This document shows, one piece after another, positions 2,876-63,521 of a DNA stretch of 64,000 nt (position 1 is the first letter of the stretch; every line of letters starts with the position of its first letter). Origin of the DNA: a virus. A program made the translations under genes and the position numbers. Where the stretch lies: the UHGV virus genome UHGV-0038495. One strand, given 5' to 3'. The notes beneath the pieces were generated by a model. The model was given only the letters and a program-made list of their open reading frames with translations. It was not told the origin of the DNA and ran no database searches.

Positions 2876-2892
2876 TATATTTATCTCCTGTA

Positions 2893-3290: not shown

Positions 3291-3318
3291 ATTAGCAATA
3301 TTTTTCTCTTATATCTTA

Positions 3319-4026: not shown

Positions 4027-4034
4027 TTAATTAT

Positions 4035-4421: not shown

Positions 4422-4489
4422 TGTGCTTGTATCCTTTTAATAGGTGGGAGCTTTACAGCTCCCGACCTTTAAAGTGATAACGATTAAAC

Positions 4490-6191: not shown

Positions 6192-6213
6192 TTTTTTTTA
6201 CTCCTTTATAAAT

Positions 6214-6402: not shown

Positions 6403-6469
6403 TTTTAAATTCCTCCTGTTTTATTTGATAATTAATTATATCGCATTATTAAAGACTTGTCAAGTTATT

Positions 6470-6715: not shown

Positions 6716-6768
6716 CTCCTTTTACTGAGCGGCGGTTTTGCTTGCCGCCCTTAACTATCTTTATTGTA

Positions 6769-12494: not shown

Positions 12495-12751
12495 ATTTTT
12501 CCTTTCCTTTTGCAATAATTTTCTTAAGTGAATTGATATATTTATTATATCATAATTTTTTATATTTTCCAATTTTTCTTTGTGCTTTCTTTATATATTT
12601 ATTATATAATATTTTTTATAATTTTTATAATAGAGTTTTTGGTCTAGACCTCAACATAGTTTTTGCTTTTTTTTGTTTATAACAAAATTTTAGCATAAAT
12701 TTTTTGCATTGTCAAATTTGCTGCGGCGCATTTTTTTTTGGGCAAATACGC

Positions 12752-35200: not shown

Positions 35201-38200
35201 ACCGTAGAACATGAACAGGCAACTTTCTTAAAAGAAAAAACAGCTCTTAATAGAGAAGCATTACTTGCAGAGGAAGCTGAAATTGATGCTCAATTAGCAC
35301 AAGCCGTAGCCGCAGATAGTGTAACAGTATCTCGTACTGGAGAAATGCGTGCTACAACTGCAAGTATTGCAACTTCTAAGGTAAAGGAATTACAAAATGC
35401 AGGCGAAGCAGTTTCAGAAGAGTTGGTAAATGCCGCACTCTCGGAAGGTATTACATTACAAAACGTAGACATAGCTGTTAAATATAAAGGTGTTGCTGCG
35501 ACAGTTGCGGCGGCATTGGCTCAAGGTCAATTTGCCGTAGCTCTTAAAGCTGTAGGGGTAGCATTAAAGGGCATTATAACAGCGGCCGCGCCTTTCTTAC
35601 CTTTAATTGTTGCTATTGGTGGTGCCATTGCTATTTTCAAGGTAGTAAAAGATGCAATGAATGAAGCTACTGATAATGCGCAAGAACAAAGTGATAAACT
35701 ACAAGCTTTACAAGAAAATCTTTCTAATGTAAATCAAGAATATGAAGGTTTAAAAGAAGCGCAGTCTACTTATGATGAGGCTAAATCTGGGTTAGATGGA
35801 CTTGTTCAAGGTACTCAAGAATGGAATGAAGCCCTTGAAGAAGCTAATAATAAAATCTTAGAAATTTTAAATAATTATCCAGAACTCTGGGCCTATGCTT
35901 CAAGGGATGAAAATGGTTTAATTTCTATAGACGACGAGGGTTTTGAAGAACTAATAGAGAAAAAGCAAGAAGCTGCACGAAAAGCTGAAGCCGCAAAGGT
36001 TGTCCAGCAGCAGACCTCTACAAAAGCTGATAATGATTTGTTAGCCGAGCAAGCAGGCGCGAAATGGAATAATGAAATTAGAGATATTTATAGCCAATAT
36101 TCACAAGGACAAATAGATGAGTCACAAGTAAGAAGTCAAGTTGCTCAACAAGAATATGAAGATTTTAACAGAATAGAAGAAAAATTAAAAGGTATTAATA
36201 AAGAAAGTGCTGAATATAGAGAGATACTGGCTAATAATGGTTTGTCAGTTCAAGATTGGGAAGAAAAATTAACATCAGTAGATGAAAAAACAAAAACAAT
36301 AATCGAAAATGCTAATAAAGCAAAATCTAATAGTACTGGCGCAGATAATGCTATGGGTACTTATCTTTCTTCTCTTGTAGCAACTGATGAAGATTTCACG
36401 GAATATGGAAATCAAAAACAAATAACCGAGGCATTAGAAGCATCTTATCAGAAAAAAGTTAAAGAAATACGTAAAAATAATAGTGATAAAGATATTAGAG
36501 AAGCTTATGAACGTGAAACTACTTTAAAAGAAGGCGATAAAGGTTATCAAGATAATGTTGACGAACAAGCAAAAGTTTTAGCTGCTATTAAAATGACTAA
36601 AGAAGAAGCTCAAGAAGTTGTAGATCAAGTAAATAGTGATATGCAACAGCTTCAAAGTCAGGTTTGGGGAGAATCTGGTGGTGGCTTATTGGGTCAAATG
36701 CTTACTGGTAATGGTAGCGCTGAAGGATATACCTTAGAAGAAATAAGTAAATTAAAATCTCAACTTGATACATTAATGAGCCCAGAACAATGGGCAAATG
36801 CTAACGATGAAGATGTTATACGAAGCCTTTTTGGAGTAGATAGTGAAACTGCAAAAGAAATTATTTCAAGATATGGTACAGAAGCTATTGAAACATTTGT
36901 TAATGCTGTAAAGAATTTTGTAAAAGCAGATAAAAAAGATTTTGATCCAGTAGAACAAGCAGCAGATGGTAATGAAGAAATAAAAGATAGAGTAGATGAT
37001 ATAAAGAAAGCATATGATAAGTTACCGGAAGATGAGAAAAAAGTAGCATTAGAAGTTATTCCAAAAATGACAGAGGACGATGCTAAGAGTTTCATTAAGG
37101 ACTCAAAAGGATATATAAAGAAATATTCTAATGATTTAAAAGCAGAAGAAACATTTGCAAATATTACAAAAGAAATAGATGCTGCAAAAGACGCCGGCGA
37201 TACTTATAATTTTGATGCAACAGATGTAAAGAATTATGCTAAACAACTTCAAAATCTCGCACGCCAAAATAAAATTGCTAATAAAGAGCTTAAAGACAAT
37301 TACGATTTAGCATTGCAAGTCGCATATTCTTATCAAAAGATGAATGACGGTCTTGAAAAGATAAGAAGTAATTGGGACGATTGGAAAAATATATTTAAGA
37401 CTGTATCTCCAAATAATTCAGAATATCAGAAGACTTTAACTGACTACGCTGGACAAATGGAAAAAGTTTTAGGAATGCAGCTTAATGATCTTGAGAATAA
37501 AGATGGTGAAGCTATTAAATTAGACTTTTTAGTTGATACAGAATCTTTAAAATTAGCCGAACAAGCTTTAAATGGTGATGCAGATGCAGTTGATAGATTA
37601 AAAGCAAAAGCGCAAGAAAAAATCTTTTTTGAAGTATATGCAGATGAAATAGATGATTCTGGCATGAGAGATGATTTGGCGAAAATGGCTAATTTAATTA
37701 CTGGTTGGGTGTCAAATCATAATATTGAAGTTGGCGCAAGCATTGATAACTCTCAATTTAATAAAGCTCTTTATTCTATGGCTGCTGCAACAGGACAAAC
37801 AGTTGCAGATATTGCTAGAATGTTTGGATTTACTGTCGGTGGTAAATTAGATGGCTATGATACTATTCAAGTGAAAAGAACAAATCTACAATCTGTAATA
37901 GATGACGGTGGTATGGAAATTGATGCTGTATCTGGAGCTGCTTCAAAAACTGCTACAAAATTTCAAAAGGCAAAAGCCGCAGGTTATGCTACTGTAATGG
38001 TTCCTAGGTTATCTTTTGGAGTAACAAATTCTGCTGCGGGGACTACAGGTTCAGTTCCAAAAGGAGTAGGCACAACCGGTTCAAAGGGCGGTGGCTCCGG
38101 CAAATCCAAAGGCGGCGGTGGAGGTGGCTCTAGTAATAAATATGAGCCAGATAAGTTAGATGATGAATTTGATAAATACTATTATTATAAAAAATCAATA

Positions 38201-50178: not shown

Positions 50179-50808
50179 ATGGCAGTACCAAATCAAATTG
50201 TGTACCGGCTAGAAGATTATAGGGTTGAAGGTGGTTATATAACAACGCCTTCAGGTATAAATATCCATAAAGAAATAGTTTCTCAAATGAAAATGGGTAA
50301 TTTTAGTAAGTTGGGGATACAGGCCCCACCGGGCACAAAATTTCAAATTAATGGAATCTCAATTATGATGGGAAGAACTGGTATATATGAATTGGATGAA
50401 GATGTTCAAGTAGCCACACTGGTTTTTGAGGAAGTACCTAATTATGAAAAAGATGATGAAAAAACTGGAATAGCTTTATCAGAAGGTATTTCGTTAATGA
50501 AAGAAGCCAAAGAGCTTTATAATACTTACATTATTAAAGATGCAGAAACTAATATTGAGAAATATCCTGGCAATATGGATGAAGATAAAAATTTTACAAC
50601 TCAATATTGGCTTGATTACCAAAAAGTTATGACTGGTGGAACACTTTCAAATGGAACTATAATTACAACTGGATATAATACATTAATAGAAAATGCAAGA
50701 AGTCAGCTGCTGCAAGGCGCGAATGGTATTTATGTTGCAAATGGAACGAAAGAACTTAATAATGTTATTATAGACTTTTTAACAGAGAAAGGAGGTAGTG
50801 GTAACTAA
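50179..50808 (+). CDS. Small baseplate or fiber-associated protein
   Basis: 209 aa. RBS taggaggt. Stop overlaps the next start (TAATG). Confidence 0.35.
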   Translation: MAVPNQIVYRLEDYRVEGGYITTPSGINIHKEIVSQMKMGNFSKLGIQAPPGTKFQINGISIMMGRTGIYELDEDVQVATLVFEEVPNYEKDDEKTGIALSEGISLMKEAKELYNTYIIKDAETNIEKYPGNMDEDKNFTTQYWLDYQKVMTGGTLSNGTIITTGYNTLIENARSQLLQGANGIYVANGTKELNNVIIDFLTEKGGSGN

Positions 50809-53105
50809 TGGATATGAGCTTTTATGGCGGCAAGCAAGGAAAAAGTTTTAGAATATCTAAGGTTTTTCAAAATAAAGCCGAATTAATTAGAGATTTAAAC
50901 GCTCGTTGGAATTCAAGTATTGGTATTAATGAATTAGTATTTATTAACTATGGAAATCCGGGGAATAAAGACATAGTGGTTCGCGCAGGAGAAATCATTG
51001 AAATAGATGGTCAAAAACTTCCACCTACACTAAAGGATTTAACTTTATTTGAAAAAAATAGATTTATAGATTTTAATTACGAATTTTCGGTTTATGATGA
51101 AGAGCAAGGACAGTATGTAACCAAAGCTGATGGTAAGCTATTTAATACTACTATTTGGCAAAAGATTTATAAAGATGATATTCCAATTAAGACAGATACT
51201 AAAATTGATCCAATTAAAGGGATAGATAGATATATGATTTCTGATGATTTTGGTGTTGGCTATGAACTTGTAGCTTGTTTAACCGGAAATACGCCAGAGA
51301 TTTCAGTAGAGAGTTCTTGGATTTATACAGACCAAGAGCCAAGGGCATATTTGAATAAAGAGAACTATGATGCTGAAAAACCTTTAATTCATTTTGATTT
51401 ACCTAAAGGAATAACTTTGCTTTATGGACCTGAATTAATAAATCGGAATACAACAGAGTTAAGACTTGATGTAACAGAAAAATTTGGAACTGGTGACTAT
51501 TATATAAATAATACAAATGGAAATACTTATTTATGTACTGCGGTTGGCGCGCAAACAAATGGGAAAAAAGTATATATAGTTAAATACATTGCAACATTAG
51601 CAAGAGAAGTTGATGAAGTTACTATTGAATCTGTAAATCCATACGTATCTGTTGATGGTTCTTGGAAACAGCAAAACGCGGGCGTTCAGAATACTATAAA
51701 TGACGAAACTTGGAATATAAAATTTACTCTACCAAAATTACCAACTCTTTCTACATCCGTAAGTGAATTATTGTCGCCAGCAAATCGACAGAGAATTACA
51801 GTGACTGGCGCGATAAAAGATGCAAATACTTATAATTTTGATTTCACTCTTGCAAAACCGTCCGTTTGGTTAAATGGCGCAGGCGTTCCAGGAAATGCAG
51901 CTGTTGGGGAAGATGGTGATTATTATTTAAACACTGAGACACAAGATGTTTCTTTTAAAAATAATGGTGCTTGGAATTTAGTAACTAACATTAAAGGTGC
52001 TCAAGGTATTCAAGGCATTAAGGGAGATAACGTTGCTATTGTAAATAGTTTTGATTTTGTTTATGATGCAACAGTTACGGGTTATATAAAAGTAGAAGGT
52101 GCAGAAAATACTTACAGAGGTAATTTAGATCCAAGTTCAACGGTGGATTTAGTAAAATTTGGTGAGATTGCCGTAGAAGTTAATGGTAATAAACAGCCAA
52201 AATCTTCTGATTTATTTAATCTTAATTATACCAATGCAAAAGGTGAAGAAAATGCATATTGGTTATTTAAATTAACCAATGATAGTAGTAATAATAAGTG
52301 GAGTTCTATGAGAGTTACTGGTAATGCGGGTTCTCTTGCAACTTTACTTATGAATGAATTTGATGCAGAAAATAGGTCTGATAAAACTTATACTACTGGA
52401 TATATTAATAATAAATTTACAGAAGAAGAAGCAAAAGTAGATGAAAAATTTAGTAACTTTACGATAGATAACATGATTACTACCGCGGCAGCTGTTGCTC
52501 CCAAAGGTGGAGAATTTACCTTTGATATAGGTGAAGGTGTTATTAAGGCAGACCAAAAAGTTGTTTTTAATGTTACTAAAGATGATGACACGGTATTTGA
52601 TGCCGCTTTTTCAAATATACAAAAACAAATAAATGATTTTAAGAACGCAACCATAGATATCGCGCACGGCGGAACTGGTGGTACAACCGTAGAGGAAGCG
52701 CGCATGAATCTTGGGGTGTATAGTAAGACAGAAATTTATAATAAGACTGAGATTGATAAAAAGGAAACTACTTTACAAGAAAGCATAAGTAGTGTTGAGG
52801 ATAAAGCAGCTAAAGCACAAGTCGCAGCAAAAAATGCAACAACTATAGCCTTGAACTTTACAATTCCTTTAAAGAGTTCTGGTACTGGAACTTGGACTAC
52901 GGTAGAAGGAAAAACGAGAGTTGTTTTAAACATAGAACATGGTTTTACAGATACTAATAAACAACCTATGGTTGTTTGCAAAGATAATGAAGATGAATCT
53001 TATCAGAAGATAGAAGAAATTACTTTTGATACTGGCAATATTTCTATTATTATGAGTGAAGAAAATAAAGTAGCGATTAATTTATTTGCTTTCTATCCAC
53101 AATAA
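50808..53105 (+). CDS. Tail fiber protein with short collagen-like segment
   Basis: GAQGIQGIKGDN is a run of G-X-Y triplets. HGGTGGTTVEEARMNLGVY resembles the GGTGA...AR.NLG motif common in phage tail fibers. 765 aa. Confidence 0.55.
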   Translation: MDMSFYGGKQGKSFRISKVFQNKAELIRDLNARWNSSIGINELVFINYGNPGNKDIVVRAGEIIEIDGQKLPPTLKDLTLFEKNRFIDFNYEFSVYDEEQGQYVTKADGKLFNTTIWQKIYKDDIPIKTDTKIDPIKGIDRYMISDDFGVGYELVACLTGNTPEISVESSWIYTDQEPRAYLNKENYDAEKPLIHFDLPKGITLLYGPELINRNTTELRLDVTEKFGTGDYYINNTNGNTYLCTAVGAQTNGKKVYIVKYIATLAREVDEVTIESVNPYVSVDGSWKQQNAGVQNTINDETWNIKFTLPKLPTLSTSVSELLSPANRQRITVTGAIKDANTYNFDFTLAKPSVWLNGAGVPGNAAVGEDGDYYLNTETQDVSFKNNGAWNLVTNIKGAQGIQGIKGDNVAIVNSFDFVYDATVTGYIKVEGAENTYRGNLDPSSTVDLVKFGEIAVEVNGNKQPKSSDLFNLNYTNAKGEENAYWLFKLTNDSSNNKWSSMRVTGNAGSLATLLMNEFDAENRSDKTYTTGYINNKFTEEEAKVDEKFSNFTIDNMITTAAAVAPKGGEFTFDIGEGVIKADQKVVFNVTKDDDTVFDAAFSNIQKQINDFKNATIDIAHGGTGGTTVEEARMNLGVYSKTEIYNKTEIDKKETTLQESISSVEDKAAKAQVAAKNATTIALNFTIPLKSSGTGTWTTVEGKTRVVLNIEHGFTDTNKQPMVVCKDNEDESYQKIEEITFDTGNISIIMSEENKVAINLFAFYPQ

Positions 53106-53150
53106 AAAAAATCCCCTCTACTGTATAATTGTAGAGGGGATTTTTTATTT
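53103..53150. terminator. Bidirectional intrinsic terminator between convergent genes
   Basis: A8, then perfect 10-bp stem tcccctctac/gtagagggga, then T6. Confidence 0.7.
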
Positions 53151-53681
53151 TATTCCTTCAAGATAAAATCTTATATTTAAATCTATATAATCGTCTATAT
53201 TAATTTGTCTTACTTCAGTATAAAATCTGCAATTAGAACAAGAACTAAGTGAATAAGTTTTGGTATTGTTTATAGGAGCGATATAATATTCTTGATTAGA
53301 CATATAAAGGAAAAAAGTACTATGTATATTTTTTGAAAAGGTGAAAGATTTTTTATATTCTGTTGTGTCTCCTTTTGTAGTAAATAAATGATAGATATAA
53401 AACTGTCCTATGTTATCAAACTCAAATGTAATATCCACCCAAACCTGTCCAGACTTATATCCAGCTATTTTAGTAGAGCAACTTCCATCATATATTCCAA
53501 GATTTATATAGTTATAATTTTTCATTTTTTCAATGGGTAAGACAAGTTCAGAAAAAAGACTCTTAGAATGACTCTGCAATGGATCCATATTAAGAGTTAT
53601 TGGGTCAGAAATAAAAAAAATTTCTTTTTTTAAACTTTCTTTACTATTATTTTGACCTAGTAAAATTCCTTTTGTTGCCAT
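53145..53681 (-). CDS. RBP-like paralog 1 (N-terminal MATKGILLGQ)
   Basis: Start placed at the internal Met (RBS caaggag), not the track's 53756. Shares the GILLGQ N-terminal motif with four other ORFs. Confidence 0.5.
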   Translation of the reverse strand: MATKGILLGQNNSKESLKKEIFFISDPITLNMDPLQSHSKSLFSELVLPIEKMKNYNYINLGIYDGSCSTKIAGYKSGQVWVDITFEFDNIGQFYIYHLFTTKGDTTEYKKSFTFSKNIHSTFFLYMSNQEYYIAPINNTKTYSLSSCSNCRFYTEVRQINIDDYIDLNIRFYLEGIK

Positions 53682-53734
53682 GATGTAATCTCCTTGTATT
53701 AGAAATATACACCATTTAAAAGATTTGTAATATT

Positions 53735-54205
53735 TTACAGTTTCATTATAAAACAAAGAGCATAATAAGGCGGCATATTGTTGTGGGAATTTCCTTTACC
53801 GACGGTAGAAGTAGTAGTATCACCAGACATACTACCAGCTTCTAAGCCTGGTAATGTTTTTGCAGAACCGGCATAGCGTGAGGCATATTCTAGGGATATT
53901 CCATTCGTTCCACTTCTATAATCACTATATTGAATTATATCGTGCGTATGATTACCAATATCATGGCTATGACTAGGCATTTGCGCAATAGTAAGAGTAA
54001 CTTCTTTTTCACCACCTGTTGCGCCTACAGTATAATTTTTACCTGCGCCTAATACAAATTTATCTCTTAGATCCGGAGTATTATTACTTCCATTACATAG
54101 CGCCCATCCATTTGGTATATTAGAACTAGAACCAGACCACATACAGATTAGACCCGTGGGGATTGAGCCACCATCGCCTTGACCTAATAAAATACCTGTA
54201 CTCAT
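53735..54205 (-). CDS. RBP-like paralog 2 with phage tail-collar domain
   Basis: MSTGILLGQGDGG... then IPNGWALCNGSN...TPDLRDKFVLGAG matches the tail-collar (MdpB-like) domain. 156 aa. Confidence 0.65.
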   Translation of the reverse strand: MSTGILLGQGDGGSIPTGLICMWSGSSSNIPNGWALCNGSNNTPDLRDKFVLGAGKNYTVGATGGEKEVTLTIAQMPSHSHDIGNHTHDIIQYSDYRSGTNGISLEYASRYAGSAKTLPGLEAGSMSGDTTTSTVGKGNSHNNMPPYYALCFIMKL

Positions 54206-54243
54206 AATAAAGACCTCCTTTATGAGTACAGAATTTTAATTTA

Positions 54244-54696
54244 TTAAAAAATTTTTATTGCTGAAACTATTAACTTGCCAGAATAGACACCTTTACTAGA
54301 AAATTCTAATTGAGAAGGCGAGTCTGTTCGTAAAGTTGTCACAAAATCTTCCCCATTTGCAATTTGGGCAATATAATAAGAACTGTTTTTTGTCCTTGAG
54401 CGAATTTGAAAAAGTTGCCTAAAATTTGTAACTTTAACATTTTTTTCTAAAGTCATTATAATTTTATTATTATATTCTGAATTACTTATTCTTAAATATC
54501 CATAATATTCACTCCCCTGTATAGCAGTTCCTTCTAAAAAAAAAGAAATAAAATCATAGTTATTTAAAATATCTTCCGTCCAGTCAATTCTACCAATATA
54601 AATAGAATCGCTAGATAAAGAAAATTCTGTAACAATATATTTTTCTATTGTGGAGAAACTATCACTTTTCCCAAGTAAAATGCCATTAACTGCCAT
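54244..54696 (-). CDS. RBP-like paralog 3 (MAVNGILLGK)
   Basis: 150 aa. Shares the conserved N-terminal motif, followed by a divergent body. Confidence 0.5.
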   Translation of the reverse strand: MAVNGILLGKSDSFSTIEKYIVTEFSLSSDSIYIGRIDWTEDILNNYDFISFFLEGTAIQGSEYYGYLRISNSEYNNKIIMTLEKNVKVTNFRQLFQIRSRTKNSSYYIAQIANGEDFVTTLRTDSPSQLEFSSKGVYSGKLIVSAIKIF

Positions 54697-54937
54697 AAAG
54701 ACCTCCTTGTCTATTTACAAGAAAATAAAATCAGTAAAATTTTTTGGACAAAAATGGTTCAAGTCGCTGAGTATATTTTTATAATATATAGAGATATAGA
54801 ATATCTTATGCCGGTAAGGGATAACTATATCTCTTACCAATTTTTTTATAATTTTTATAGTTTACAAATGAAAATTTACACTTTTTTACATTTCAAAAAA
54901 GTGTGGGTTTTTAAGACTGATAGAAAGGAGAATTATA

Positions 54938-55476
54938 TGAGTGTAAATGGAATTTTATTAGGACAGAATAATAAAAATGATAATGAAAATGATTTAAACT
55001 TTAAATTTTACAAAACTTTTTCTACATCAGGCAATAGTTGGTCTGACATTGATTTACCTAATGGTTATATATACAAAATTTTTATAAACAAACTTAATGA
55101 TTGGGGAAATAGATATGATTTTATGAACTTACAGATTCAAAATGATAGTACTAACCATTATTATTATTATCCTTCTTCCTTCTTAACAAGCTATAATCCA
55201 AGTCCATGGGGAGTTAACTCAAAAGAATCTTCCAGAAATAATACTTTTAATTTAATTGGAGAATCTCCATATAATAATACTGCAAGCGAAGCCCCTCTTT
55301 ATTTAACAATATGTGCTTTGCCAAGTAAGGGATGGTGTATTGTACAATATCTTAACTCATTAAAGAAATTCGTAGAATGGAAAGTAACTTCGAGTCTTTC
55401 GTTATCATATTATGACAGTTATCAAACCTCTGGAAGAACTATAGCTCAGATTTATCGAACACCTTTTAAGTTTTAA
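54938..55476 (+). CDS. RBP-like paralog 4 (MSVNGILLGQ)
   Basis: Start at ATG 54938 after RBS aaaggag. The track's upstream extension to 54754 lacks an RBS and covers the divergent promoter region. Confidence 0.5.
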
Positions 55477-55522
55477 ATTAATTATTTATTAATTTTATAC
55501 ATTTCTTAAATAATAAAAAGTA

Positions 55523-55531
55523 TGATATAAT
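55523..55531 (+). promoter_or_regulatory. Extended -10 promoter TGATATAAT(ATA), copy 2
   Basis: Same 12-mer as at 31584 and 57567. Confidence 0.4.
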
Positions 55532-55558
55532 ATAAACAAAAGAAAAGGAGATTAACTT

Positions 55559-56044
55559 ATGGCATTATTCAAATTAGTAGATGTTTTACCAAAAGAAAAA
55601 ACTAAAGGATATGTTTATTTACAGCGCGCAGGTGAGAAAAATGCAGTTATGTATGCAGATATATCAGAATCAGAAAGAGTTGGAGTTGCAGCAAACGCAA
55701 TAGTACAAAAGGATGAAATAATAGAAGCTGATGAAGTTGCAACTATTAATGATATCGCAGAATTGCGCGAACAGCTTAATGATCTTTTAATCCAGGTCTC
55801 TATGGGTGCGAAGATGTTCCCAATCACTTTGGAGAAAGGTAAATGGTCCGAAGTCGAGTCACGTTGGATATACGAGGAAGAAATTGCTAGCGTGAACGAT
55901 CCAGAATCTGTAGTAATACAGTGTACTGAAAATGAACGTGAATACAGTTTGATTATGGCTTGTAAGGTAGAAGAAGGAAAAATTCAATTTATAGCAGGAC
56001 ACCAACCGATAAATCCAATCTCAGTATTAGTAATTATAAAATAG
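55559..56044 (+). CDS. Hypothetical protein
   Basis: 161 aa. RBS aaaaggag. Confidence 0.4.
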   Translation: MALFKLVDVLPKEKTKGYVYLQRAGEKNAVMYADISESERVGVAANAIVQKDEIIEADEVATINDIAELREQLNDLLIQVSMGAKMFPITLEKGKWSEVESRWIYEEEIASVNDPESVVIQCTENEREYSLIMACKVEEGKIQFIAGHQPINPISVLVIIK

Positions 56045-56074
56045 AATCGCTTAAATGCGGTTCTATTTTTTTTT
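56044..56074 (+). terminator. Intrinsic terminator
   Basis: gaatcgc/gcggttc stem with one mismatch, followed by T9. Confidence 0.5.
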
Positions 56075-56089
56075 GCCTTTTTTGAGCTT

Positions 56090-56200
56090 GCTGTTTTGTC
56101 GAATGCAATAAGCTGAGCATAGCAATTTGTCGAATCCAGCGGGCTGAGCATAGCAATTTGTCGAAATTTGTAGAATTTTGTCGAAAATTACAGTTACGAA
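56090..56200. repeat. Iteron-like direct repeats TTTGTCGAA (four or five copies), including two 23-bp copies of gctgagcatagcaatttgtcgaa
   Basis: Copies at about 56095, 56127, 56158 and 56179, with a variant tttgtagaa at 56167. The 23-mers are at 56113 and 56142. Confidence 0.6.
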
Positions 56201-56280
56201 TATTCACAATCATCCTCTTATATTTTTTATAACTAATGAAGGGGTTTAAAGTATAATATAAATTCCAAGAAAGGAGAATT

Positions 56281-56703
56281 GTGTTGAACAACAATAATTA
56301 TTACCCCGGCGCACAAGGGATAAATATCCCACCTAGAGCGCCAATTTATAATGCTCCTCCGACAGGTTTGAAGGGTAGACCGGTATCCTCTATAGAAGAG
56401 GCACGAGCAATCGCCATAGACTTTGATGGTGTAATAAACTATTTCCCAGACTTAGCTAATAACCGCATTTACACTAAACAATTTCAAATGGACGGAACTG
56501 CGCCACTTAAAATGTATGTATTAAAAGAGATTCCTAACAACTTTGAATTCTCAGAAGGAGATTATATCACAAGAGAAGAATTCAATAACGTTATATCTAA
56601 GCTAACCGCGCTTTTGCAGCAAAATCAGCAAATTCCGCCTGTAGAAGAACCAACCCCTACGCCTGAACAACCTGCCGCGAAGCCTTTAGATATTAATTTT
56701 TAA
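56281..56703 (+). CDS. Hypothetical protein with Pro-rich C-terminus
   Basis: GTG/TTG start after aaaggag. 140 aa. Confidence 0.4.
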   Translation: MLNNNNYYPGAQGINIPPRAPIYNAPPTGLKGRPVSSIEEARAIAIDFDGVINYFPDLANNRIYTKQFQMDGTAPLKMYVLKEIPNNFEFSEGDYITREEFNNVISKLTALLQQNQQIPPVEEPTPTPEQPAAKPLDINF

Positions 56704-56715
56704 AGGAGGAAAAGA

Positions 56716-56967
56716 ATGAATAATATGCAGATGGACCCTAGACTAAAAGTTATAATGCAACTAAAAAACGGGGCGAATCCACAACAAATTGTAATGAGCA
56801 TGCTACAGCAAAGCGCGTCTCAGAATCCAATGGCTCAAAATTTCTTAGCTCTTGCAAACTCTCATAAAACAAACGATATGGAGCAAATTGTAAGAAATAT
56901 GTATCAAGCCAAAGGATTGGATTTTGACAAGGCAAGCTCAGAATTGAAAGAAATGCTCCGTAGATAG
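56716..56967 (+). CDS. Hypothetical Q/N/M-rich small protein
   Basis: 83 aa. RBS aaaggagg. Confidence 0.4.
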   Translation: MNNMQMDPRLKVIMQLKNGANPQQIVMSMLQQSASQNPMAQNFLALANSHKTNDMEQIVRNMYQAKGLDFDKASSELKEMLRR

Positions 56968-56976
56968 GAGAAATTT

Positions 56977-57504
56977 ATGTTTAACGGTAATACTAATGGT
57001 TATAGTTTAGCAGATATCGCTGCTGCTACTGGTGGTTATGGTAACAGAGATTCAGGCTGGGGCGGCGATGGCTGGTGGTTAATCCTTATCCTCATGTTCT
57101 GTTGGGGTGGCTTCGGTTATGGCGATGGCTTTGGTAGAGGTGGTTTTGGAGGAGGTACAGCAAATTCTCCAGCATTCCAAGGTGCGCTTACTAGAGCAGA
57201 CTTATGTGAAGAAAGTAACTTCAACAATTTATCTCGCGCAATAGAAAGTGGATTTAAGGGTTCTAATGAAGGTTTTGCGTCTGCGGCACTGGCTCGCGCG
57301 AATAACACTGCAGCTTTACAGAGTTCACTTTGTCAAGGTTTTAATACTGTTCAGAACACTATTACTAATGGTGATTATGATATCTTACAGTCTATTAATT
57401 CTAATACTGTTGCAAATATGCAGAATACAAATGCGATTACTGCACAGTTGAATAATATGGCAGCTCAACAGGCTAATTGCTGCTTAACTTCACAGGCAGC
57501 CTAA
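56977..57504 (+). CDS. Gly-rich membrane protein with N/Q/A-rich C-terminal region (paralogous to 58502..58882). 3' end may include intron-derived codons
   Basis: GGYGNRDSGWGGDGWWLILILMFCWGGFGYGDGFGRGGFGGG, then IESGFKGSNEGF...AAQQAN, similar to IAQGFSDLNYN...ASQQAQN of the downstream ORF. Confidence 0.45.
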   Translation: MFNGNTNGYSLADIAAATGGYGNRDSGWGGDGWWLILILMFCWGGFGYGDGFGRGGFGGGTANSPAFQGALTRADLCEESNFNNLSRAIESGFKGSNEGFASAALARANNTAALQSSLCQGFNTVQNTITNGDYDILQSINSNTVANMQNTNAITAQLNNMAAQQANCCLTSQAA

Positions 57505-57566
57505 ACGAGTAATTGTTTAGTTAACAATCCGGTGAATTGCTGGAAGGCTAAGTTTACAAAAAAATA

Positions 57567-57575
57567 TGATATAAT
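57567..57575 (+). promoter_or_regulatory. Extended -10 promoter TGATATAAT(ATA), copy 3
   Basis: Same 12-mer as at 31584 and 55523, about 37 nt upstream of ATG 57612. Confidence 0.4.
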
Positions 57576-57611
57576 ATATACATAAAAATATTTTAAAGGA
57601 GGCATAAACAA

Positions 57612-58355
57612 ATGTCTGAGAAAAAATTTTATGTATATAAATGGTTTAATACTTCTACAGGAGAAGTCTTTTATATCGGCAAAGGATGCGGAAAAAGATT
57701 TCAAGTTACAAAAAAAAGAAATCAAAAATTTCTTGATTACATATCAGAAAATCCTGTTAGTAGTGAAATCATAGAGTCTAATTTAACAGAGGAAGAAAGT
57801 TTTCAAAAAGAAAAAGAATGGTATGATTATTATAAATCTTTAAATCAATGTTCTTGTAATCTTATGGAACCTGGAACAGGAGGATTAAGTTTTGTATGGA
57901 CAGAAGAAATGAAAACTTACTGGTCTAAAAATAACCCTATGAAAAAAGAAGAACAACGTCAACGAATGAAAGAAAATAATCCTATGAAAAATCCAGAAAC
58001 CGCTTTAAAAAATGGTGCGGCTCACAAAAGAGCTGTTATTATTGGGGATAAAACTTTTGATAGTTTAAAAGAAGCAGGATTATTCTTTAATGTAAGTCCA
58101 GTGACAATTGGTAGTTGGTGTAAAAACGGAATTAGTTCAAAGGGAGAAAAATGCTCTTATGCAGATGGGAAAGGAGCTAAAAAATGCAAGAACAAAGGAA
58201 TTCCTGTTTTAATAGATGACGTTTATTATCCATCAATAGCGGACGCTGCAGCTCACTTAGATGTTTCCGCTTCTGCCATTAAATTAAGTTTAAAAAATAA
58301 TAAACCTACTAAAAATCATATTTGTAAATATGCTAATCAGCAGCCTAGCCAATGA
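57612..58355 (+). CDS. GIY-YIG homing endonuclease with NUMOD-like DNA-binding repeats
   Basis: FYVYKWFNTSTGEVFYIGKGCGKRF is the GIY-YIG motif. Repeated NNPMKK...NNPMKN motifs. Confidence 0.75.
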   Translation: MSEKKFYVYKWFNTSTGEVFYIGKGCGKRFQVTKKRNQKFLDYISENPVSSEIIESNLTEEESFQKEKEWYDYYKSLNQCSCNLMEPGTGGLSFVWTEEMKTYWSKNNPMKKEEQRQRMKENNPMKNPETALKNGAAHKRAVIIGDKTFDSLKEAGLFFNVSPVTIGSWCKNGISSKGEKCSYADGKGAKKCKNKGIPVLIDDVYYPSIADAAAHLDVSASAIKLSLKNNKPTKNHICKYANQQPSQ

Positions 58356-58501
58356 AAGTCAATAAAAGTAATTGGAAGGTTCAACGACTAATGGGTGAGC
58401 TATGACAAGCAATAAACCCAACACGAGTGCCGGACTCCTTTTATAAAAAGGATGAAGATATAGTCTGAACTATATGGAAACATATAGAAATAAGGAATAA
58501 A

Positions 58502-58882
58502 ATGCCTTATGATAACAATATTGGTGAAACTAAAACTCAGATAGCTCAAGGTTTCTCAGACCTTAACTACAATCTCGCGACCCAAGAGTGTCAGACTAGA
58601 CAGGCAGTAACAGATAGTGCAAGAGACATAATTGATAATCAGAATGCAAATACTCGCTCAATCCTTGACTTCTTAACTCAGGATAGACTGGCTTCATTAA
58701 CTGCTGAAAATCAGTCACTTAAATTTGCAGCTTCACAACAGGCTCAGAATGCTTACCTTGTACAGCAACTTGGCGCGAAACCTGCAGCACCAGCATATGT
58801 AGTACCAAATCCTTATACTGGTTCTTATAATTATAACTATGGTGGATGCGGCTGCAATTACAACACTGGCGCACTCGCATAA
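58502..58882 (+). CDS. N/Q/A-rich protein with C-terminal CGC motif. Either a paralog of 56977..57504 or exon 2 of the same gene
   Basis: 126 aa. The frame is open upstream to 58469, so an exon junction just before the ATG is possible. Confidence 0.4.
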   Translation: MPYDNNIGETKTQIAQGFSDLNYNLATQECQTRQAVTDSARDIIDNQNANTRSILDFLTQDRLASLTAENQSLKFAASQQAQNAYLVQQLGAKPAAPAYVVPNPYTGSYNYNYGGCGCNYNTGALA

Positions 58883-58896
58883 GAAAGGAGTAGTAT

Positions 58897-59316
58897 ATGG
58901 AAATAACTGCTAATGCTGTTCAAACAGTAGCTTCAAACGGAAACGTTTTATTCACAGCAACTGCGGTTCCGGGGTCATGTAGCATAATCCATAGGCAAGG
59001 CTCTGGGTTAGTTAATCTTAGAGGAGTGACACAGCAGTGTCGCTCCCGCTTTAGAATTTCATTTGGAGGAAATGTGGCACTTGCAACGGGCGCAACAGTT
59101 GGACCAATTACCTTAGCTCTTGCAATAGATGGAGAACCAGTTTCATCAACTTCAATGATAGTAACACCTGCCGCAGTTGGAGATTATTTTAATGTATTCT
59201 CAAGCATGTTTTTAAATGTTCCTCGCGGAGATAATTATTCTATAAGTATTAAAAATCTTAGTGGAGTAAACGTAGACATTCAAAATGCAAATTTAATTGT
59301 AGAAAGGGTGGCGTAA
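58897..59316 (+). CDS. BclA C-terminal-like (C1q/TNF-like jelly-roll) domain protein
   Basis: 139 aa ending NLIVERVA, comparable to the BclA C-terminal domain ending IIIEKVA. Alternating hydrophobic beta pattern throughout. Confidence 0.45.
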   Translation: MEITANAVQTVASNGNVLFTATAVPGSCSIIHRQGSGLVNLRGVTQQCRSRFRISFGGNVALATGATVGPITLALAIDGEPVSSTSMIVTPAAVGDYFNVFSSMFLNVPRGDNYSISIKNLSGVNVDIQNANLIVERVA

Positions 59317-59317
59317 T

Positions 59318-59896
59318 ATGGAAGGTTTAAAGACAATAAAAAAGACTTTAATCGCGGCGGTTCAGGGTCAGATCGGAGATCTTGGTAATGTAGACGCGCA
59401 TGAAATGGGCGAAGTCGTAGATATGATTAAAGACCTTGAAGAAGCTTGCTATTATCATACGATAGTAGAAGCAATGGAAGAGAAAGATGAGCATGGAAAA
59501 AGACGCTATTTTAGAGAACTTCCATATTATCCTAATCCAATGTATGATAGAGATAGATATGAACAAGACGAGCCTTATAGAATGTACTATCACGATGGGC
59601 GCGGAACCAGAATGAATTCTGGACGTTATTCCGAATATGATGACGCTATAGGTCCATATCGTGAGACTAAAGTACCGACTATGAAACGAGACTCGCGCGA
59701 AGGTAGAAGTGGTCTTTCAAGAAAAGGCTATATTGAAGCACGCGAAGGTCATTTAGACAAAGAAACAAAAATGAAAGAATTAGATAAGTATATGAATGAT
59801 TTAACTCAAGATATAGTGGAAATGATAAATGATTTATCACAAGAGGAAAAAGATTTATTAAGGAATAAGATGGCAGGTCTTGTGAATAGAATTTGA
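59318..59896 (+). CDS. Hypothetical charged protein
   Basis: 192 aa rich in R, E, D and Y. ATGG overlap with the previous stop. Confidence 0.4.
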   Translation: MEGLKTIKKTLIAAVQGQIGDLGNVDAHEMGEVVDMIKDLEEACYYHTIVEAMEEKDEHGKRRYFRELPYYPNPMYDRDRYEQDEPYRMYYHDGRGTRMNSGRYSEYDDAIGPYRETKVPTMKRDSREGRSGLSRKGYIEAREGHLDKETKMKELDKYMNDLTQDIVEMINDLSQEEKDLLRNKMAGLVNRI

Positions 59897-60201
59897 TAAA
59901 GATTAATAATGTTAAATGGGAGATATATCTTGTATCTCCCAATCATCCAGAAATGTGCCAGCCAGACGGAACTTGGACTATAGGCGCTTGTGACTGGCAA
60001 ACCAAGGGTATTTATATCGTAGATAACTTAGACGAAGCTTTGACATGGAAAGTTCTAGCTCATGAGATTACTCATGCTGCGATGTTTAGTTATAATATCG
60101 CTATGAGCGCAGAGCTAGAAGAGTTTATTGCCGATTTAATAGCCACGTATGGATTTGAAATCATAGCTCAAACTAATAAAATTTTCTCAAGAATTACATA
60201 A
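59893..60201 (+). CDS. Small HExxH zinc-metallopeptidase-like protein (ImmA/IrrE-like?)
   Basis: VLAHEITHAAMF carries an HExxH motif. 102 aa. Confidence 0.4.
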   Translation: MIKINNVKWEIYLVSPNHPEMCQPDGTWTIGACDWQTKGIYIVDNLDEALTWKVLAHEITHAAMFSYNIAMSAELEEFIADLIATYGFEIIAQTNKIFSRIT

Positions 60202-60248
60202 AAAAAATAAAGGGTAGTAACGTAAGTTACTACCCTTTTTCTTATTTT
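60201..60248. terminator. Bidirectional intrinsic terminator between convergent genes
   Basis: A7, then agggtagtaac gtaa gttactaccct as a perfect 11-bp stem, then T5cttatttt. Confidence 0.7.
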
Positions 60249-60625
60249 GTAAATATTTTTTCTTCTTTAACCGCAGCTTCGATTTTAGCATCTATATAAG
60301 CATCTAAATCTTTTATTGCGGCTTCCAGTATTTTTTGACCATTTTCGCCTAAAACATCCATAACTGCTTTCTTAGTTTTGTTAAAGGCAAACTTCTGCGC
60401 GCTCTCATCAAATTTACCTTGTTCCTTGAGTGCATCTACATAAGTCTGATTCGTAGCGGAAACCGCATCTTGAATAGCTCTTTCTAACAAGTCTATGTAG
60501 AAACTAGCTTTTTCATTCTTTGCCTCTTGTTTAGCCTTTGTAGCGAAATTATGCAAAAGACGAATGAGTACAATACCGAGAATCGCGCACAGCGCTTCAA
60601 TAATTTGGTATATATATTGTTCCAT
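60242..60625 (-). CDS. Holin, LL-H (phage_holin_6)-like
   Basis: Single N-terminal TM (IYQIIEALCAILGIVLIRLL), then a long charged helical tail ending KIEAAVKEE. 127 aa. Confidence 0.45.
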   Translation of the reverse strand: MEQYIYQIIEALCAILGIVLIRLLHNFATKAKQEAKNEKASFYIDLLERAIQDAVSATNQTYVDALKEQGKFDESAQKFAFNKTKKAVMDVLGENGQKILEAAIKDLDAYIDAKIEAAVKEEKIFTK

Positions 60626-60673
60626 GGAATTTATTCCTCCTTTATATAAGAAATAAAAAATCCATTAATAAGA

Positions 60674-61294
60674 TTATAATAATTTGTCCAAATCAGCACC
60701 ATATTTTTTTGGGTCTTTTAACATATTACGCAAAGTGCTATAACAGTAACCATCGGCAAACTGCAAAAGCGCAGTAATTGGATAGCCTTCTTTCCAAAGA
60801 TTATAAATCATTGGAAAGTTTTCTGGGAGTTTTTTAGTTGGACGCCCAAATGCTACTCCTTTTTCTTTCGCTATTGCAATACCCTCAGCTTGACGCTGTT
60901 TGATAAATTTGCGCTCTTGTTCAGCACTAAAAAATAAGACGTTTACTATAAGATTATTAATAAATATTCCCATTTCTCCAAGTTCATGATTAGTATTAAG
61001 AAAAGGTGTATCAATTACTTTTATTTGGATATGGCGTTTTTGAATTAGCTCTGACCACATTTGCAGCGCTTCCTCGTAATGGCGCGAGAGTCTGTCTAAA
61101 GATTTTATAACTAGAGTATCACCCTCTTTAATTACCTTCATGAGTTTTTGATAAGATGGACGGTTAAAATCTTTGCCTGAAGCCTTATCACTAAATACAT
61201 GATCTTCAGTCACTCCCGCATCAGATAGAGCTTTTAATTGCCTGTCTAATTTCTGTTCGTGACTACTTACTCTTGCATACCCATAGATTTCCAT
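60674..61294 (-). CDS. Small serine recombinase (Hin/Gin/resolvase family, likely DNA invertase)
   Basis: YGYARVSSHEQKLDRQ carries the catalytic Ser, and GDTLVIKSLDRLSR is also conserved. Small size with a C-terminal HTH segment. 206 aa. Confidence 0.8.
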   Translation of the reverse strand: MEIYGYARVSSHEQKLDRQLKALSDAGVTEDHVFSDKASGKDFNRPSYQKLMKVIKEGDTLVIKSLDRLSRHYEEALQMWSELIQKRHIQIKVIDTPFLNTNHELGEMGIFINNLIVNVLFFSAEQERKFIKQRQAEGIAIAKEKGVAFGRPTKKLPENFPMIYNLWKEGYPITALLQFADGYCYSTLRNMLKDPKKYGADLDKLL

Positions 61295-61409
61295 TGTAAC
61301 ACCTTTCTTTCATTAATCTTTTTATTTTATTATAACATGTTTTTTATTTAATTAAAATGGTAATAATTAACAATTTAATTAAAGTATCCTTTTTAAAATT
61401 AGATCAAAA

Positions 61410-62639
61410 CTATCCGGATATTAATTGTTTAATTGACAGAGAGACAACTTCATTTTCATTAATCTCTGTTGGTTTTTGAATAATTTCTGTTTTAAATAAA
61501 TAATTATCACTATAAGAATATTTTTCTGGTATTTTTAGAATTTTCCAAGGTCCATTTGCATTTTTAGAATAATATAAAAATTGCGCAGTAAGAAAACCTT
61601 TGTAATCATTTAAAATAATTAAACGTTGAATTATATTATCCGGTATTTCAGATAGCCCAATATTAGTTTTATTGGCTAATATTGAAATATTTTCTCCATA
61701 AACTATCTCGTTATCTTTTATACTAGCTAATAATCCATTGAAATTTAATATTCCAGAAATTAATGGGGTTTGATATTTTGTATAGGAACCATCTTTATCA
61801 TGTGTTATGGCTGCAGAATCCGCTGCATAAAACATGTTTTGACTCCAATCTTTTCTCATTCCAAAACTTCTAAATCCTTGAGAATCAGGCTCAAATTGTG
61901 CTCGAATATTAAAAGCGCTATCTGTCCACCAGTTATAAATATTCTTCTTACAATCATTTTCATTAAAAGAATCTGCGTATGGTATAAAAAAATGAATATT
62001 TACATAATCATCTCTTTTACGATAACAATAATGTATTCCATAGTCATTTTTTTCTATATTAACTTTTTGAATAGAAAAATTAGTTTCATCTCCAAAACAT
62101 AAAGGAGAATTGCTATCGGTTATTTGTGTATATTGATTCCAGTCTATTAAGTTTTCAGATTGAAAAATTTTAACACATACATACTCATTTCGAGAACTAT
62201 TCAAAGAGTCTTTATATGTACCTGCGATATAATATTTTCTATCTGTTCCACATAAAAAAGTGGCTTCATCTGGATAAAAAGTTGTTGAAGAACCTAATAT
62301 GTTAAAAGGATTAGCATATTGCCATGTTATAAGATCTTTTGAAAAAGCTACATGATGGTAGTAATAACGATACATTGCCCAAGTGTAATAATAATAATAA
62401 TAAATAATAAAAATTCCATTATCATAATGGATATTCTTTATAACGACACTGTCAAAAGTTTGGTTATTATCTGTTATATTATAAAGATTTTTTAACTCAA
62501 CTGTTAAATTTTTTATATCTTGTATATCTATCCCTTTAAGAAAAACAGTCGTTCCATTAAATATAACTTTTTCACAATCCACTCCATTGTAAACAACTTC
62601 TGTAATATTAGTTCCATTTACTTTTATACTCATTATCAT
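61410..62639 (-). CDS. RBP-like or tail-fiber-like protein (409 aa). N-terminus is homologous to the GILLGQ paralogs
   Basis: MSIKVNGT...VIFNGTTVFLKG resembles the N-terminal region of the GILLGQ family. Tyr-run YYYYYYTW. Body possibly a beta-propeller/carbohydrate-active fold. Confidence 0.45.
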   Translation of the reverse strand: MIMSIKVNGTNITEVVYNGVDCEKVIFNGTTVFLKGIDIQDIKNLTVELKNLYNITDNNQTFDSVVIKNIHYDNGIFIIYYYYYYTWAMYRYYYHHVAFSKDLITWQYANPFNILGSSTTFYPDEATFLCGTDRKYYIAGTYKDSLNSSRNEYVCVKIFQSENLIDWNQYTQITDSNSPLCFGDETNFSIQKVNIEKNDYGIHYCYRKRDDYVNIHFFIPYADSFNENDCKKNIYNWWTDSAFNIRAQFEPDSQGFRSFGMRKDWSQNMFYAADSAAITHDKDGSYTKYQTPLISGILNFNGLLASIKDNEIVYGENISILANKTNIGLSEIPDNIIQRLIILNDYKGFLTAQFLYYSKNANGPWKILKIPEKYSYSDNYLFKTEIIQKPTEINENEVVSLSIKQLISG

Positions 62640-62642
62640 TCT

Positions 62643-62730
62643 CCTTTAACGATTATTAAAGTTGTTCCATCTAAAGTAAAAGTAACAGTATCTTGCCCTA
62701 ACAAAATTCCATTTACAGCCATTTTTACAG
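62643..62730 (-). pseudogene. Truncated 28-codon copy of the conserved RBP N-terminus (MAVNGILLGQDTVTFTLDGTTLIIVKGE*)
   Basis: Begins with the same MAVNGILLGQ as 54244..54696 and stops after 28 codons. The 409-aa ORF then starts 4 nt downstream in another frame. Confidence 0.45.
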
Positions 62731-62821
62731 GCTCCTTTCTGTTTTATAATCGTACACAATTAAAAAGGCATAAAAAAAATGGGTAGACAATTAAGTCTAC
62801 CCAACAAGAAGGAAATGAAAA

Positions 62822-63004
62822 TTAAATAAGTTTATCTAAAGGAGTTTTTCTACACATATCAAGAAATTCCTTCTGTTCTGCATCATGTGGGAAATATTTA
62901 ATTCCCTGTTTCTGGCAAAACATATCAAGAGCAACTCCAATATCAACGCCTTGACTTACAGAAATATCTCTAATTTCTTTGCCATGAGCTAAATATTTGT
63001 TCAT
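62822..63004 (-). CDS. Small hypothetical protein (start at MNKYL)
   Basis: RBS gaggtg precedes the internal ATG. The track's 63139 start overlaps the upstream gene. Confidence 0.3.
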   Translation of the reverse strand: MNKYLAHGKEIRDISVSQGVDIGVALDMFCQKQGIKYFPHDAEQKEFLDMCRKTPLDKLI

Positions 63005-63020
63005 TACAATCACCTCTTTT

Positions 63021-63521
63021 TTAATCCATATTATAATACTTATGAGCAACAGCATTATGTAAATCATGTCCATCATCATTACCGCCAAGTCGCTCATAAG
63101 CTTCAAAATCAATTTGGTGCTGAAGCCATTCAGTTTCACTTATTTTATGAGTTGGTTCTAAGAGAGCTTTACATTGTCTCTTAAAATTATTGCCTTGAAC
63201 ACTTAGCAATCCCTCTTTCAGAATCTTTTGCTGTGCATCAGATGACTGAACGTCTTTGCGAACCTCGTTTATCTTCTGTTCCACTTTATCATCTAAAGCG
63301 GTAATGCGATTATTCGTTTCTATCAAACATTCATTCATCTTTTCAAAACGCTCATCTATCTTCTCAAGAATACCATCATAAAAAGCTTTTTGCTCTTCTG
63401 TTTTTTGATGTTGCTGTTCTGCGCGCCACAGTTTCCAATAGCGCCTACAAGCAAAAGATAAGCCAGATACGATTAAACCAAATACAACTTCAACCCAATA
63501 CTTTAAAATAAATTCAGGCAT
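63021..63521 (-). CDS. N-terminal TM plus coiled-coil protein (lysis-associated?)
   Basis: VVFGLIVSGLSFA is a TM helix, followed by helical repeats rich in Q, K and E. 166 aa. Confidence 0.35.
   Translation of the reverse strand: MPEFILKYWVEVVFGLIVSGLSFACRRYWKLWRAEQQHQKTEEQKAFYDGILEKIDERFEKMNECLIETNNRITALDDKVEQKINEVRKDVQSSDAQQKILKEGLLSVQGNNFKRQCKALLEPTHKISETEWLQHQIDFEAYERLGGNDDGHDLHNAVAHKYYNMD

Follow-up and report, generated by a model that had tools for sequence, protein, structure and literature searches.

A Probable Promoter-Moving DNA Inversion System for Tail Fiber Tip Genes in an Uncultured Human Gut Phage

We analyzed a 64,000-nucleotide stretch of the phage genome UHGV-0038495 (here, the window), which contains a cluster of gene cassettes that open with the same short GILLG peptide and lie near a tail fiber gene. 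In our judgment, this locus is probably a multi-site programmed DNA inversion system, shufflon-like and promoter-moving, that serves receptor-binding (tail fiber tip) genes. Five cassettes (A to E) carry the motif at their N termini, and a crossover site with a TGT core lies in the 5' untranslated region (UTR) of each. A spacer between cassettes C and D ends in the master site, R, and holds what is predicted to be the only conserved promoter/leader element at the locus. Crossover falls within the 3 nucleotides (nt) of the TGT core, a sister phage occurs as inversion isomers, a block of cassettes is gained or lost within the window strain, and a serine recombinase of the invertase/resolvase family co-occurs with the cassette array. 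A promoter acting in one direction only would leave the remaining cassettes silent, and the switch would then act on host range. All comparative data are from metagenome assemblies.

Inversion isomers and TGT crossover sites in related genomes

The clearest rearrangement was found in the sister phage, for which two assemblies, L022 (ERZ27300218, MEGAHIT) and L023 (JGI 3300013902), are set apart by 4 mismatches over 22,457 bp and by an exact inversion of 1,055 bp. The inverted segment comprises cassettes X' and C' and the whole spacer. The parental sites, ...TTAAAAACC TGT ACTCAAAG... in the 5' UTR of B' and ...CAAAAAAG TGT GGGTTTTTAA... in the 5' UTR of D', share only TGT, and both recombinant junctions are exact reciprocal products. 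This phage was assembled from several samples, and the inverted state, in which the leader faces B' and then A', is present in independent MEGAHIT and metaSPAdes assemblies. The loci shown here, together with similar loci that were collapsed, suggest that the B'-then-A' state is the commoner isomer. An initial annotation of the window, made from its sequence, had named isomers with an inverted spacer as a check on its reading, and the sister phage supplies them.

Two further rearrangements involve the window strain and a 95% relative. A contig from Hadza/Nepal gut samples (L036) is 99.97% identical to the window contig and carries 2,054 extra bp, which hold two additional cassettes, X373 (MSTEGILLNH...) and Z291 (MTTGILLGQ...), the latter a second collar protein beside B. 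Two directly oriented sites bound this block exactly, and the junction falls within C-TGTACTCATA. In the 95% relative, L032, the segment equivalent to window positions 55614 to 61375, which contains the invertase and genes of the lysis region, has the opposite orientation with respect to the fiber gene, and a 383-amino-acid (aa) cassette followed by the invertase stands directly behind the leader. Contig ends also fall on the cores: one metaSPAdes contig (L024/L018) stops at position 14628, precisely a single 55-mer beyond the T of a junction TGT, and another (L033) stops at position 5036, precisely on the ...ACA of the site of cassette A. These ends suggest branching of the assembly graph, that is, heterogeneity within the sample.

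All 23 distinct cassettes that we compared have TGT 22 to 36 nt upstream of the ATG. On its left, a site is flanked by whatever sequence happens to precede it, and on its right by the UTR that belongs to the cassette; the two flanks assort independently and switch at TGT. Each cassette brings a common 5' module, made up of an A/T-rich half-site, the TGT core, a short 5' UTR with the ribosome-binding site (RBS), the ATG, the peptide M-x-x-(x)-G-I-L-L-G/N, and a linker of N, S, and G residues. Five sites were mapped in the window, R on the plus strand and the other four on the minus strand, along with one candidate, and two sizes of inversion occur in relatives. Orthologs of R and of the site of B (sB) form the two ends of the L022/L023 inversion; no isomer using the site of C (sC) was seen in the assemblies. 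R and a recombinant in L018 (TTAAAAACC TGT GGGTTTTTAA) come close to a palindrome, most cassette sites have a poor right half-site, and TGT is common to all. At cassette E, a terminator-like hairpin lies directly upstream of the site, leaving no room for a promoter, and this hairpin would insulate the fifth cassette from upstream transcription.

Relatives have additional TGT/ACA junctions at the 3' ends of cassettes and roughly 100 nt before the invertase gene (L001, at approximately 15705 and 20975; L029, at approximately 530 to 560); in L029, a site separates a cassette and the invertase, which are transcribed divergently. The ACA in the 3' flank at the junction of the large L032 inversion may be another candidate site at a cassette 3' end. 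Taken together, these junctions hint that the sites are more numerous than the five in the 5' UTRs.

Cassettes, leader element, and recombinase

The initial annotation had described four open reading frames (ORFs) that begin with a GILLG(Q/K) peptide right after an RBS, three on the minus strand and one on the plus strand across a 240-bp spacer, and our analysis agreed on both counts. A, B, and C lie on the minus strand and D on the plus strand, their N termini read MATKGILLGQ, MSTGILLGQ, MAVNGILLGK, and MSVNGILLGQ, and a GGAG-type RBS precedes each of the four start codons. It had also counted five copies without placing the fifth, which we located at position 62722 on the minus strand (MAVNGILLGQ). 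A six-frame scan of the 64 kb for G[ILV]L[LI]G returned 6 occurrences, and 5 of these lie at residues 4 to 9 of an ORF and are the cassette N termini. In most cassettes, a low-complexity stretch rich in N, S, and G follows the motif. The start of A was assigned to the ATG at 53681, and a TTG at 53756 was rejected; for D, gene callers report a 240-aa version in place of the 179-aa protein used here. In the fifth cassette, the anchor-bearing ORF (E28) is followed by a larger body (E409). E28 could be what is left of an adaptor gene (D' of L017, in comparison, has 183 aa) or a genuine mini-protein.

The expectation of nearly identical DNA of about 18 bp across the motif did not survive alignment. 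The 18 nt that encode GILLGQ are identical at 12 to 16 positions between copies (67 to 89%), and all differences are synonymous except for the Lys codon of C. Across 23 cassette types, G-I-L-L is invariant, while 4 codons are in use for the first Gly, another 4 (TTA, CTA, CTT, and CTC) for the second Leu, and 4 for the last Gly. With its residues invariant and its codons varying synonymously, the motif is conserved as protein and not as DNA. Elsewhere, a distant stand-alone collar protein of 175 aa (P0133) starts with MALGAILGQ, which resembles the GILLGQ N terminus; judging by this protein, a related docking peptide may exist outside the clade.

Behind the shared N terminus, the bodies are unrelated, as the initial annotation had stated: past residue 12, A to E have no pairwise similarity (best blastp E = 0.07). 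Its assignment of one body to the tail-collar domain also held, for B, which matches PHROG 1800 at 3.7e-28 over residues 8 to 156 and scores 22.4 and 24.6 bits against Pfam Collar (PF07484) and Gp10_C (PF21939), just under their cutoffs of 24 and 27. B has 26,980 homologues in a representative search, 10,667 of them with E ≤ 1e-10, and most are C-terminal domains of long fibers. Searches of Pfam and PHROG with A, C, D, E409, and ten cassettes of relatives returned nothing beyond the collar domain, and only 3 homologues of D were found among 5.8 billion proteins.

Comparison among relatives connects these bodies to tail fibers. Closely related phages carry different bodies behind the same N termini: the position of C is occupied by different bodies in L001, L017, and L032, and in L032 the same cassette A has a different neighbor. 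Relatives without the invertase have exactly one gene with a GILLG N terminus, directly after the fiber gene, and its body has the classic fiber sequence MAVNGILLGADTNSNKYLPLTGGTLTG... The classic tail fiber motif YLPLTGGTLTG is found in GILLG genes of relatives, and the GILLG gene of L034 has a Pfam Phage_fiber_2 match. In L001, likewise a 95% relative, the B (collar) cassette (12351 to 12665, minus strand) is a pseudogene: an in-frame stop follows codon 33, and the rest of the gene is truncated, in keeping with archived cassettes that are dispensable. The interpretation in the initial annotation is supported in part: its layout of exchangeable host-range determinants stands, on the strength of the shared N terminus with swapped bodies in relatives, the collar body, and the fiber motifs; that reading did not include the serine recombinase, the location of the fifth cassette, or the spacer as a conserved promoter/leader element.

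Spacer sequences of the window, L001, and L017 agree at about 95% of positions, and about 140 nt hardly vary at all; the adjoining fiber proteins of the window and L017 are only about 50% identical. Relatives without the invertase have the same element between the fiber terminator and the single GILLG gene. Because it precedes the sole GILLG gene in these phages, the ancestral job of the spacer is likely to be serving the rightward gene. A promoter scan identified two candidate promoters on the plus strand and detected no promoter of the sigma-70 type on the minus strand of the spacer. Both dyad symmetries noted in the initial annotation were recovered; the first resembles a terminator or attenuator, and the 3' arm of the second holds the master crossover site. 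As RNA, the leader (54790 to 54940) folds with a z score of −6.3. Its substitutions in relatives are one-sided, with pairing kept via G-U or A-U, and no double compensatory changes were seen in the leader hairpins of these relatives. A search of positions 53000 to 63200 against Rfam found no family in the spacer. As a separate observation, a leader of about 190 nt with three hairpins (54740 to 54912 in the window; 12300 to 12511 in L025; also in L027 and L034) is more conserved than any neighboring protein. The leader could be an attenuator/antiterminator or a small-RNA gene.

A small serine recombinase is encoded directly downstream of the fifth cassette. It matches PF00239 at 3.2e-30 over residues 3 to 147, with a YARVSS motif at residues 6 to 11, and PHROG 125 (DNA invertase) at 1.2e-48; its closest solved structures are Sin/Bin3, gamma-delta resolvase, and Gin. 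Its counterpart in the sister phage, the one with isomers, is 95% identical. The window, L001, L017/L022, and L032 each have the invertase together with a multi-cassette array, and L025, L027, L042, and L044 have neither. This co-occurrence and the protein family strongly suggest that the recombinase is the catalyst. In L031, another phage with a recombinase that is 47% identical, no comparable cassettes were found.

Table 1. Coordinates of cassettes, crossover cores, and associated features in the window
Feature	Position	Strand	Remarks
Tail fiber protein	50808-53105	+	765 aa; collagen-like repeat
Bidirectional terminator-like hairpin	53101-53151	both	Between fiber gene and cassette A; inverted repeat I24, 21-nt arms, 90% complementary, flanking A and T runs
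Cassette A	53145-53681	-	178 aa; no Pfam or PHROG match
Core sA (TGT)	53709-53711	-	30 nt upstream of ATG of A; homology with L021/L032 switches exactly here
Cassette B	53735-54205	-	156 aa; tail-collar/gp10_C-type receptor-binding tip domain
Core sB (TGT)	54228-54230	-	25 nt upstream of ATG of B; junction of 2,054-bp block
Cassette C	54244-54696	-	150 aa; no Pfam or PHROG match
Spacer	54697-54936	+	Conserved predicted promoter/leader element directed at D
Core sC (TGT)	54717-54719	-	Crossover type; 23 nt upstream of ATG of C, at left edge of spacer
Candidate promoter	54758-54785	+	TTCAAG-16-TATAAT; promoter scan
First dyad	54813-54838	+	Hairpin with 11-bp stem, then T run; rightward only; invariant in 6 relatives
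Candidate promoter	54834-54861	+	TTACCA-16-TATAGT; promoter scan
Second dyad	54870-54912	+	Extended long leader hairpin; top at 54880-54904
Master core sD/R (TGT)	54902-54904	+	...TTTCAAAAAAG TGT GGGTTTTTAAGA...; 35 nt upstream of ATG of D
Cassette D	54937-55476	+	179 aa; sole cassette facing the leader in this isomer
Candidate extra site (TGT)	55499-55501	-	Between stop of D and promoter of next gene; position equivalent to sY of L001; weak, by resemblance only
Serine recombinase	60674-61294	-	206 aa; invertase/resolvase family; own TGnTATAAT-type promoter
E409, body of cassette E	61410-62639	-	409 aa; directly upstream of recombinase, same orientation
E28, anchor-bearing ORF of cassette E	62636-62722	-	28 aa; MAVNGILLGQDTVTFTLDGTTLIIVKGE; ATGA-coupled to E409
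Core sE (TGT)	62754-62756	-	34 nt upstream of ATG of E28; L030 has identical left flank and different right flank, switch at TGT
Terminator-like hairpin	62780-62803	-	Directly upstream of sE

Proposed switch and alternatives

The tail fiber protein encoded beside cassette A offers a possible partner for the cassette products. Among 13 homologues, its C-terminal 82 residues (684 to 765) are the most conserved segment, with a mean conservation of 0.82 and 22 invariant positions, and the residues just before them (601 to 683) are the most variable, at 0.33. A conserved C terminus after a variable stretch is the opposite of the pattern of a receptor-binding tip. We infer from this pattern that the C-terminal domain of the fiber is a candidate docking platform for interchangeable GILLG tips, with the shared N-terminal peptide as the putative anchor.

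In the mechanism that we propose, the recombinase would recombine R with an oppositely oriented cassette site, and the segment between them would flip. Each flip would re-aim the promoter/leader at another cassette or set of cassettes; in the isomer represented by the window, it would be aimed at D. Recombination of R with sC would bring C, B, and A behind the leader; with sB, B and A (the state seen in the sister phage); with sA, A; and with sE, E28 and E409 (a state like that of L032). Further rounds would permute the order of the cassettes. The common N-terminal peptide would dock every alternative tip on one partner in the virion, probably the conserved C-terminal domain of the fiber, and the switch would change receptor specificity. 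In its most specific form, the proposal is that one promoter/leader on invertible DNA is re-aimed by a serine invertase, via 5' UTR sites with a 3-nt core, at five or more promoter-less, complete receptor-binding genes, all of which plug into the same fiber by a 9-residue peptide. We are evenly balanced on this form, which would represent an undescribed design for a host-range switch.

Several observations count against a programmed switch. In the window strain no inversion isomer was found: all 8 contigs recovered by searching with C, the 161-aa neighbor, B, and the invertase proteins have the same orientation. The block difference between L035 and L036 involves directly oriented sites, and about 30 nt of flanking similarity could permit a homology-driven loss; classical Hin-type invertases avoid recombining directly oriented sites. 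The activity and direction of the promoter are predictions, both candidates being weak consensus matches, and a leftward promoter, should there be one, could allow expression of the full set of cassettes whatever the isomer. Among proteins of solved structure, those closest to the recombinase are resolvases (Sin and gamma-delta) as much as invertases. With an anchor-bearing ORF of only 28 aa, the fifth cassette may be defective. The AlphaFold2 model of D was unusable (pLDDT 40), and the docking role of the peptide is one that we infer.

The main rival explanation holds that all GILLG proteins are made together and form a branched, multi-receptor fiber, like that of phages with several tailspikes, with the inversions and cassette differences an evolutionary reordering of two divergent operons and no switch. 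Each cassette has its own RBS and start codon, as this explanation would have it, and both isomers of the sister phage leave every cassette downstream of one end of the spacer. A weak leftward promoter is possible, and co-expression hinges on such an undetected promoter. However, in relatives devoid of leftward genes the conserved element has only the rightward gene to serve, a terminator insulates cassette E, and the L001 pseudogene of B speaks for dispensable cassettes. Co-expression would also leave the invertase and the conserved sites without a selected role, yet invertase and array occur together in four phages and are both missing from four others. On this evidence we consider co-expression unlikely. 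It is less probable still that the mosaic arose by ordinary homologous or illegitimate recombination between co-infecting phages at similar 5' ends, the recombinase having another job, such as multimer resolution for a prophage that is circular and plasmid-like. Three observations would suit that explanation: two resolvases, Sin and gamma-delta, are among the closest solved relatives, the assembly is a circle of about 139.8 kb, and the block deletion lies between direct repeats with about 30 nt of similarity. Yet the sites joined in the L022/L023 inversion have no more than 3 nt in common, the genomes being otherwise nearly identical, several independent junctions fall on the same TGT, and the relatives that lack the array also lack the recombinase.

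Two other explanations concern the position and the reality of the junctions. The DNA that encodes GILLG could itself be the recombination site, as in Mu, P1, and Min, since it forms imperfect inverted repeats and D and E are 82% identical over 34 nt. This candidate was rejected and has very little probability, because all mapped breakpoints fall 22 to 36 nt before the ATG and there is free variation at third codon positions, both of which contradict a crossover in the GILLG codons. That the apparent isomers are assembly artefacts would be conceivable for data drawn from metagenome assemblies throughout, but the inverted identity that flanks the segments is 3 to 10 nt, far under the k of any assembler, and each state was recovered repeatedly, from independent samples and by different assemblers; we give artefacts almost no credence. 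The programmed inversion of a promoter/leader among complete tip genes is the reading that we carry forward to the comparison with known systems.

Genomic context and relation to known systems

The UHGV-0038495 window is a 100% match to a Logan contig, and a circular assembly of about 139.8 kb exists for this phage genome, from human gut samples. A break of the ENA contig k141_617807 inside B, which at first looked like heterogeneity, turned out to be a k−1 overlap of the circular assembly. One 95% relative was binned together with an uncultured Clostridium species, which points to a member of that genus as a possible host, and the nearest isolated phage is Phass-1, at 40% in a comparison of portal proteins. 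Near and distant DNA searches of GenBank phages found no relatives of the locus, matches being confined to the collar domain and a group I intron; the 765-aa fiber had no tblastn match among GenBank phages; and in IMG/VR, a degenerate DNA pattern for M-x-V-N-G-I-L-L-G recovered only this phage clade, with the remaining matches due to chance.

Other features of the genome were noted in passing. A 2,926-aa ORF (32267 to 41047) corresponds to the tape measure protein called in relatives (PF10145 on homologues of 2,918 to 2,992 aa), and its length would imply a very long tail. Beyond the right end of the window, L039/L040 (positions 1 to 7000) carry an early region with the anaerobic ribonucleotide reductase NrdD and its activase, a dUTPase, and PhoH, which fits a large phage of an anaerobic host. 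A 288-aa gene (exons at 56977 to 57504 and 58502 to 58882) is split by a group I intron (Rfam RF00028, 48.6 bits, 58253 to 58487), which lies within 56977 to 58882 and bears an ORF for a GIY-YIG homing endonuclease (57612 to 58355); the same gene is unbroken in L001 and L032. Just past the terminator of the 161-aa gene, 31-nt copies that are 84% identical form a tandem pair (56095 to 56156), which is also found in L001 (16724 to 16785).

If the proposed switch is correct, it would constitute a natural plug-and-play receptor-binding system in uncultured gut Clostridia phages of about 140 kb and would extend invertase-driven variation in host range to large uncultured Firmicute gut phages. It would also explain contig breaks and differences at this locus in metagenome assemblies, and it would offer two handles for engineering, namely, a 9-residue docking tag for domain swapping and a compact recombinase with its sites. 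The locus would link strain-level phage variation in human gut metagenomes (Hadza and Nepal samples) to receptor choice in a way that can be tested.

Programmed fiber inversion is textbook knowledge for Mu, P1, and p15B in enterobacteria and has been proposed for prophages of Bifidobacterium, and in these systems crossover fuses coding segments. Like the Gin/G-segment of Mu, the Cin/C-segment of P1, Pin of e14, and Min of p15B, the locus described here has a small phage serine recombinase beside alternative tail fiber determinants (summarized in PMC6109161 and PMC9881135). In those systems, as is proposed here, inversion at short, imperfectly palindromic sites with a tiny core changes the receptor-binding part, and p15B Min likewise has more than two sites. 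Their crossover lies inside the fiber ORF, where a constant N-terminal Sc segment is fused to variable C-terminal segments. In contrast, all breakpoints mapped here lie upstream of the ATG, in the 5' UTR, so the intragenic crossover typical of Hin, Gin, Cin, and Min does not occur; the cassettes are whole genes with their own RBS and start codon, each repeating the 9-residue N terminus, and the promoter/leader lies on the invertible DNA. Coexisting inversion isomers, another trait of these systems, were found for the sister phage only. The present phage is also of a low-GC, Firmicute type from the gut, and Fis is not expected in a Firmicute-type host.

With shufflons, the locus has in common that it contains more than two sites in both orientations. 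The Rin shufflon of Bifidobacterium prophages is also aimed at a receptor-binding protein of gut phages (PMC6109161). Rin and the R64 PilV shufflon resemble the present array in having several cassettes and short, asymmetric crossover repeats just upstream of the variable segments, and Rin also has isomers between closely related genomes (PMC6109161). Rin and Rci are tyrosine recombinases, whereas the enzyme here is of the serine family, and their cassettes are C-terminal coding pieces that are fused to a constant N-terminal gene, in contrast to the self-contained genes here.

Branched systems such as those of Klebsiella KP34-type phages, G7C, and CBA120 are alike in combining a short conserved N terminus with unrelated receptor-binding bodies on a common adaptor. 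They are co-expressed and co-assembled without DNA switching, and their docking is structurally proven, whereas docking here is proposed.

The logic of the locus appears closer to that of promoter-moving systems such as the sap S-layer switch of Campylobacter fetus. The sap locus, fimS, and the Bacteroides capsule promoters inverted by Mpi resemble the proposed switch in placing a single promoter on invertible DNA before alternative full-length homologues with a conserved N-terminal anchor, and in their nested inversions. In the sister phage, the inverted 1,055 bp holds the whole leader element, including the predicted promoter. Recombination at sap is homologous and RecA dependent and takes place within long conserved 5' coding regions, whereas here a serine recombinase would act in a phage at 5' UTR sites with a 3-nt core; fimS and Mpi turn one fixed operon on and off. 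Because the intragenic crossover that fuses N- and C-terminal segments is lacking, we place the locus outside the Gin/Min family, as a likely variant of programmed fiber inversion. In this variant, the unit of exchange would be the whole gene and the moving part the promoter/leader, which, if confirmed, would make it a second architectural solution for receptor switching in phages.

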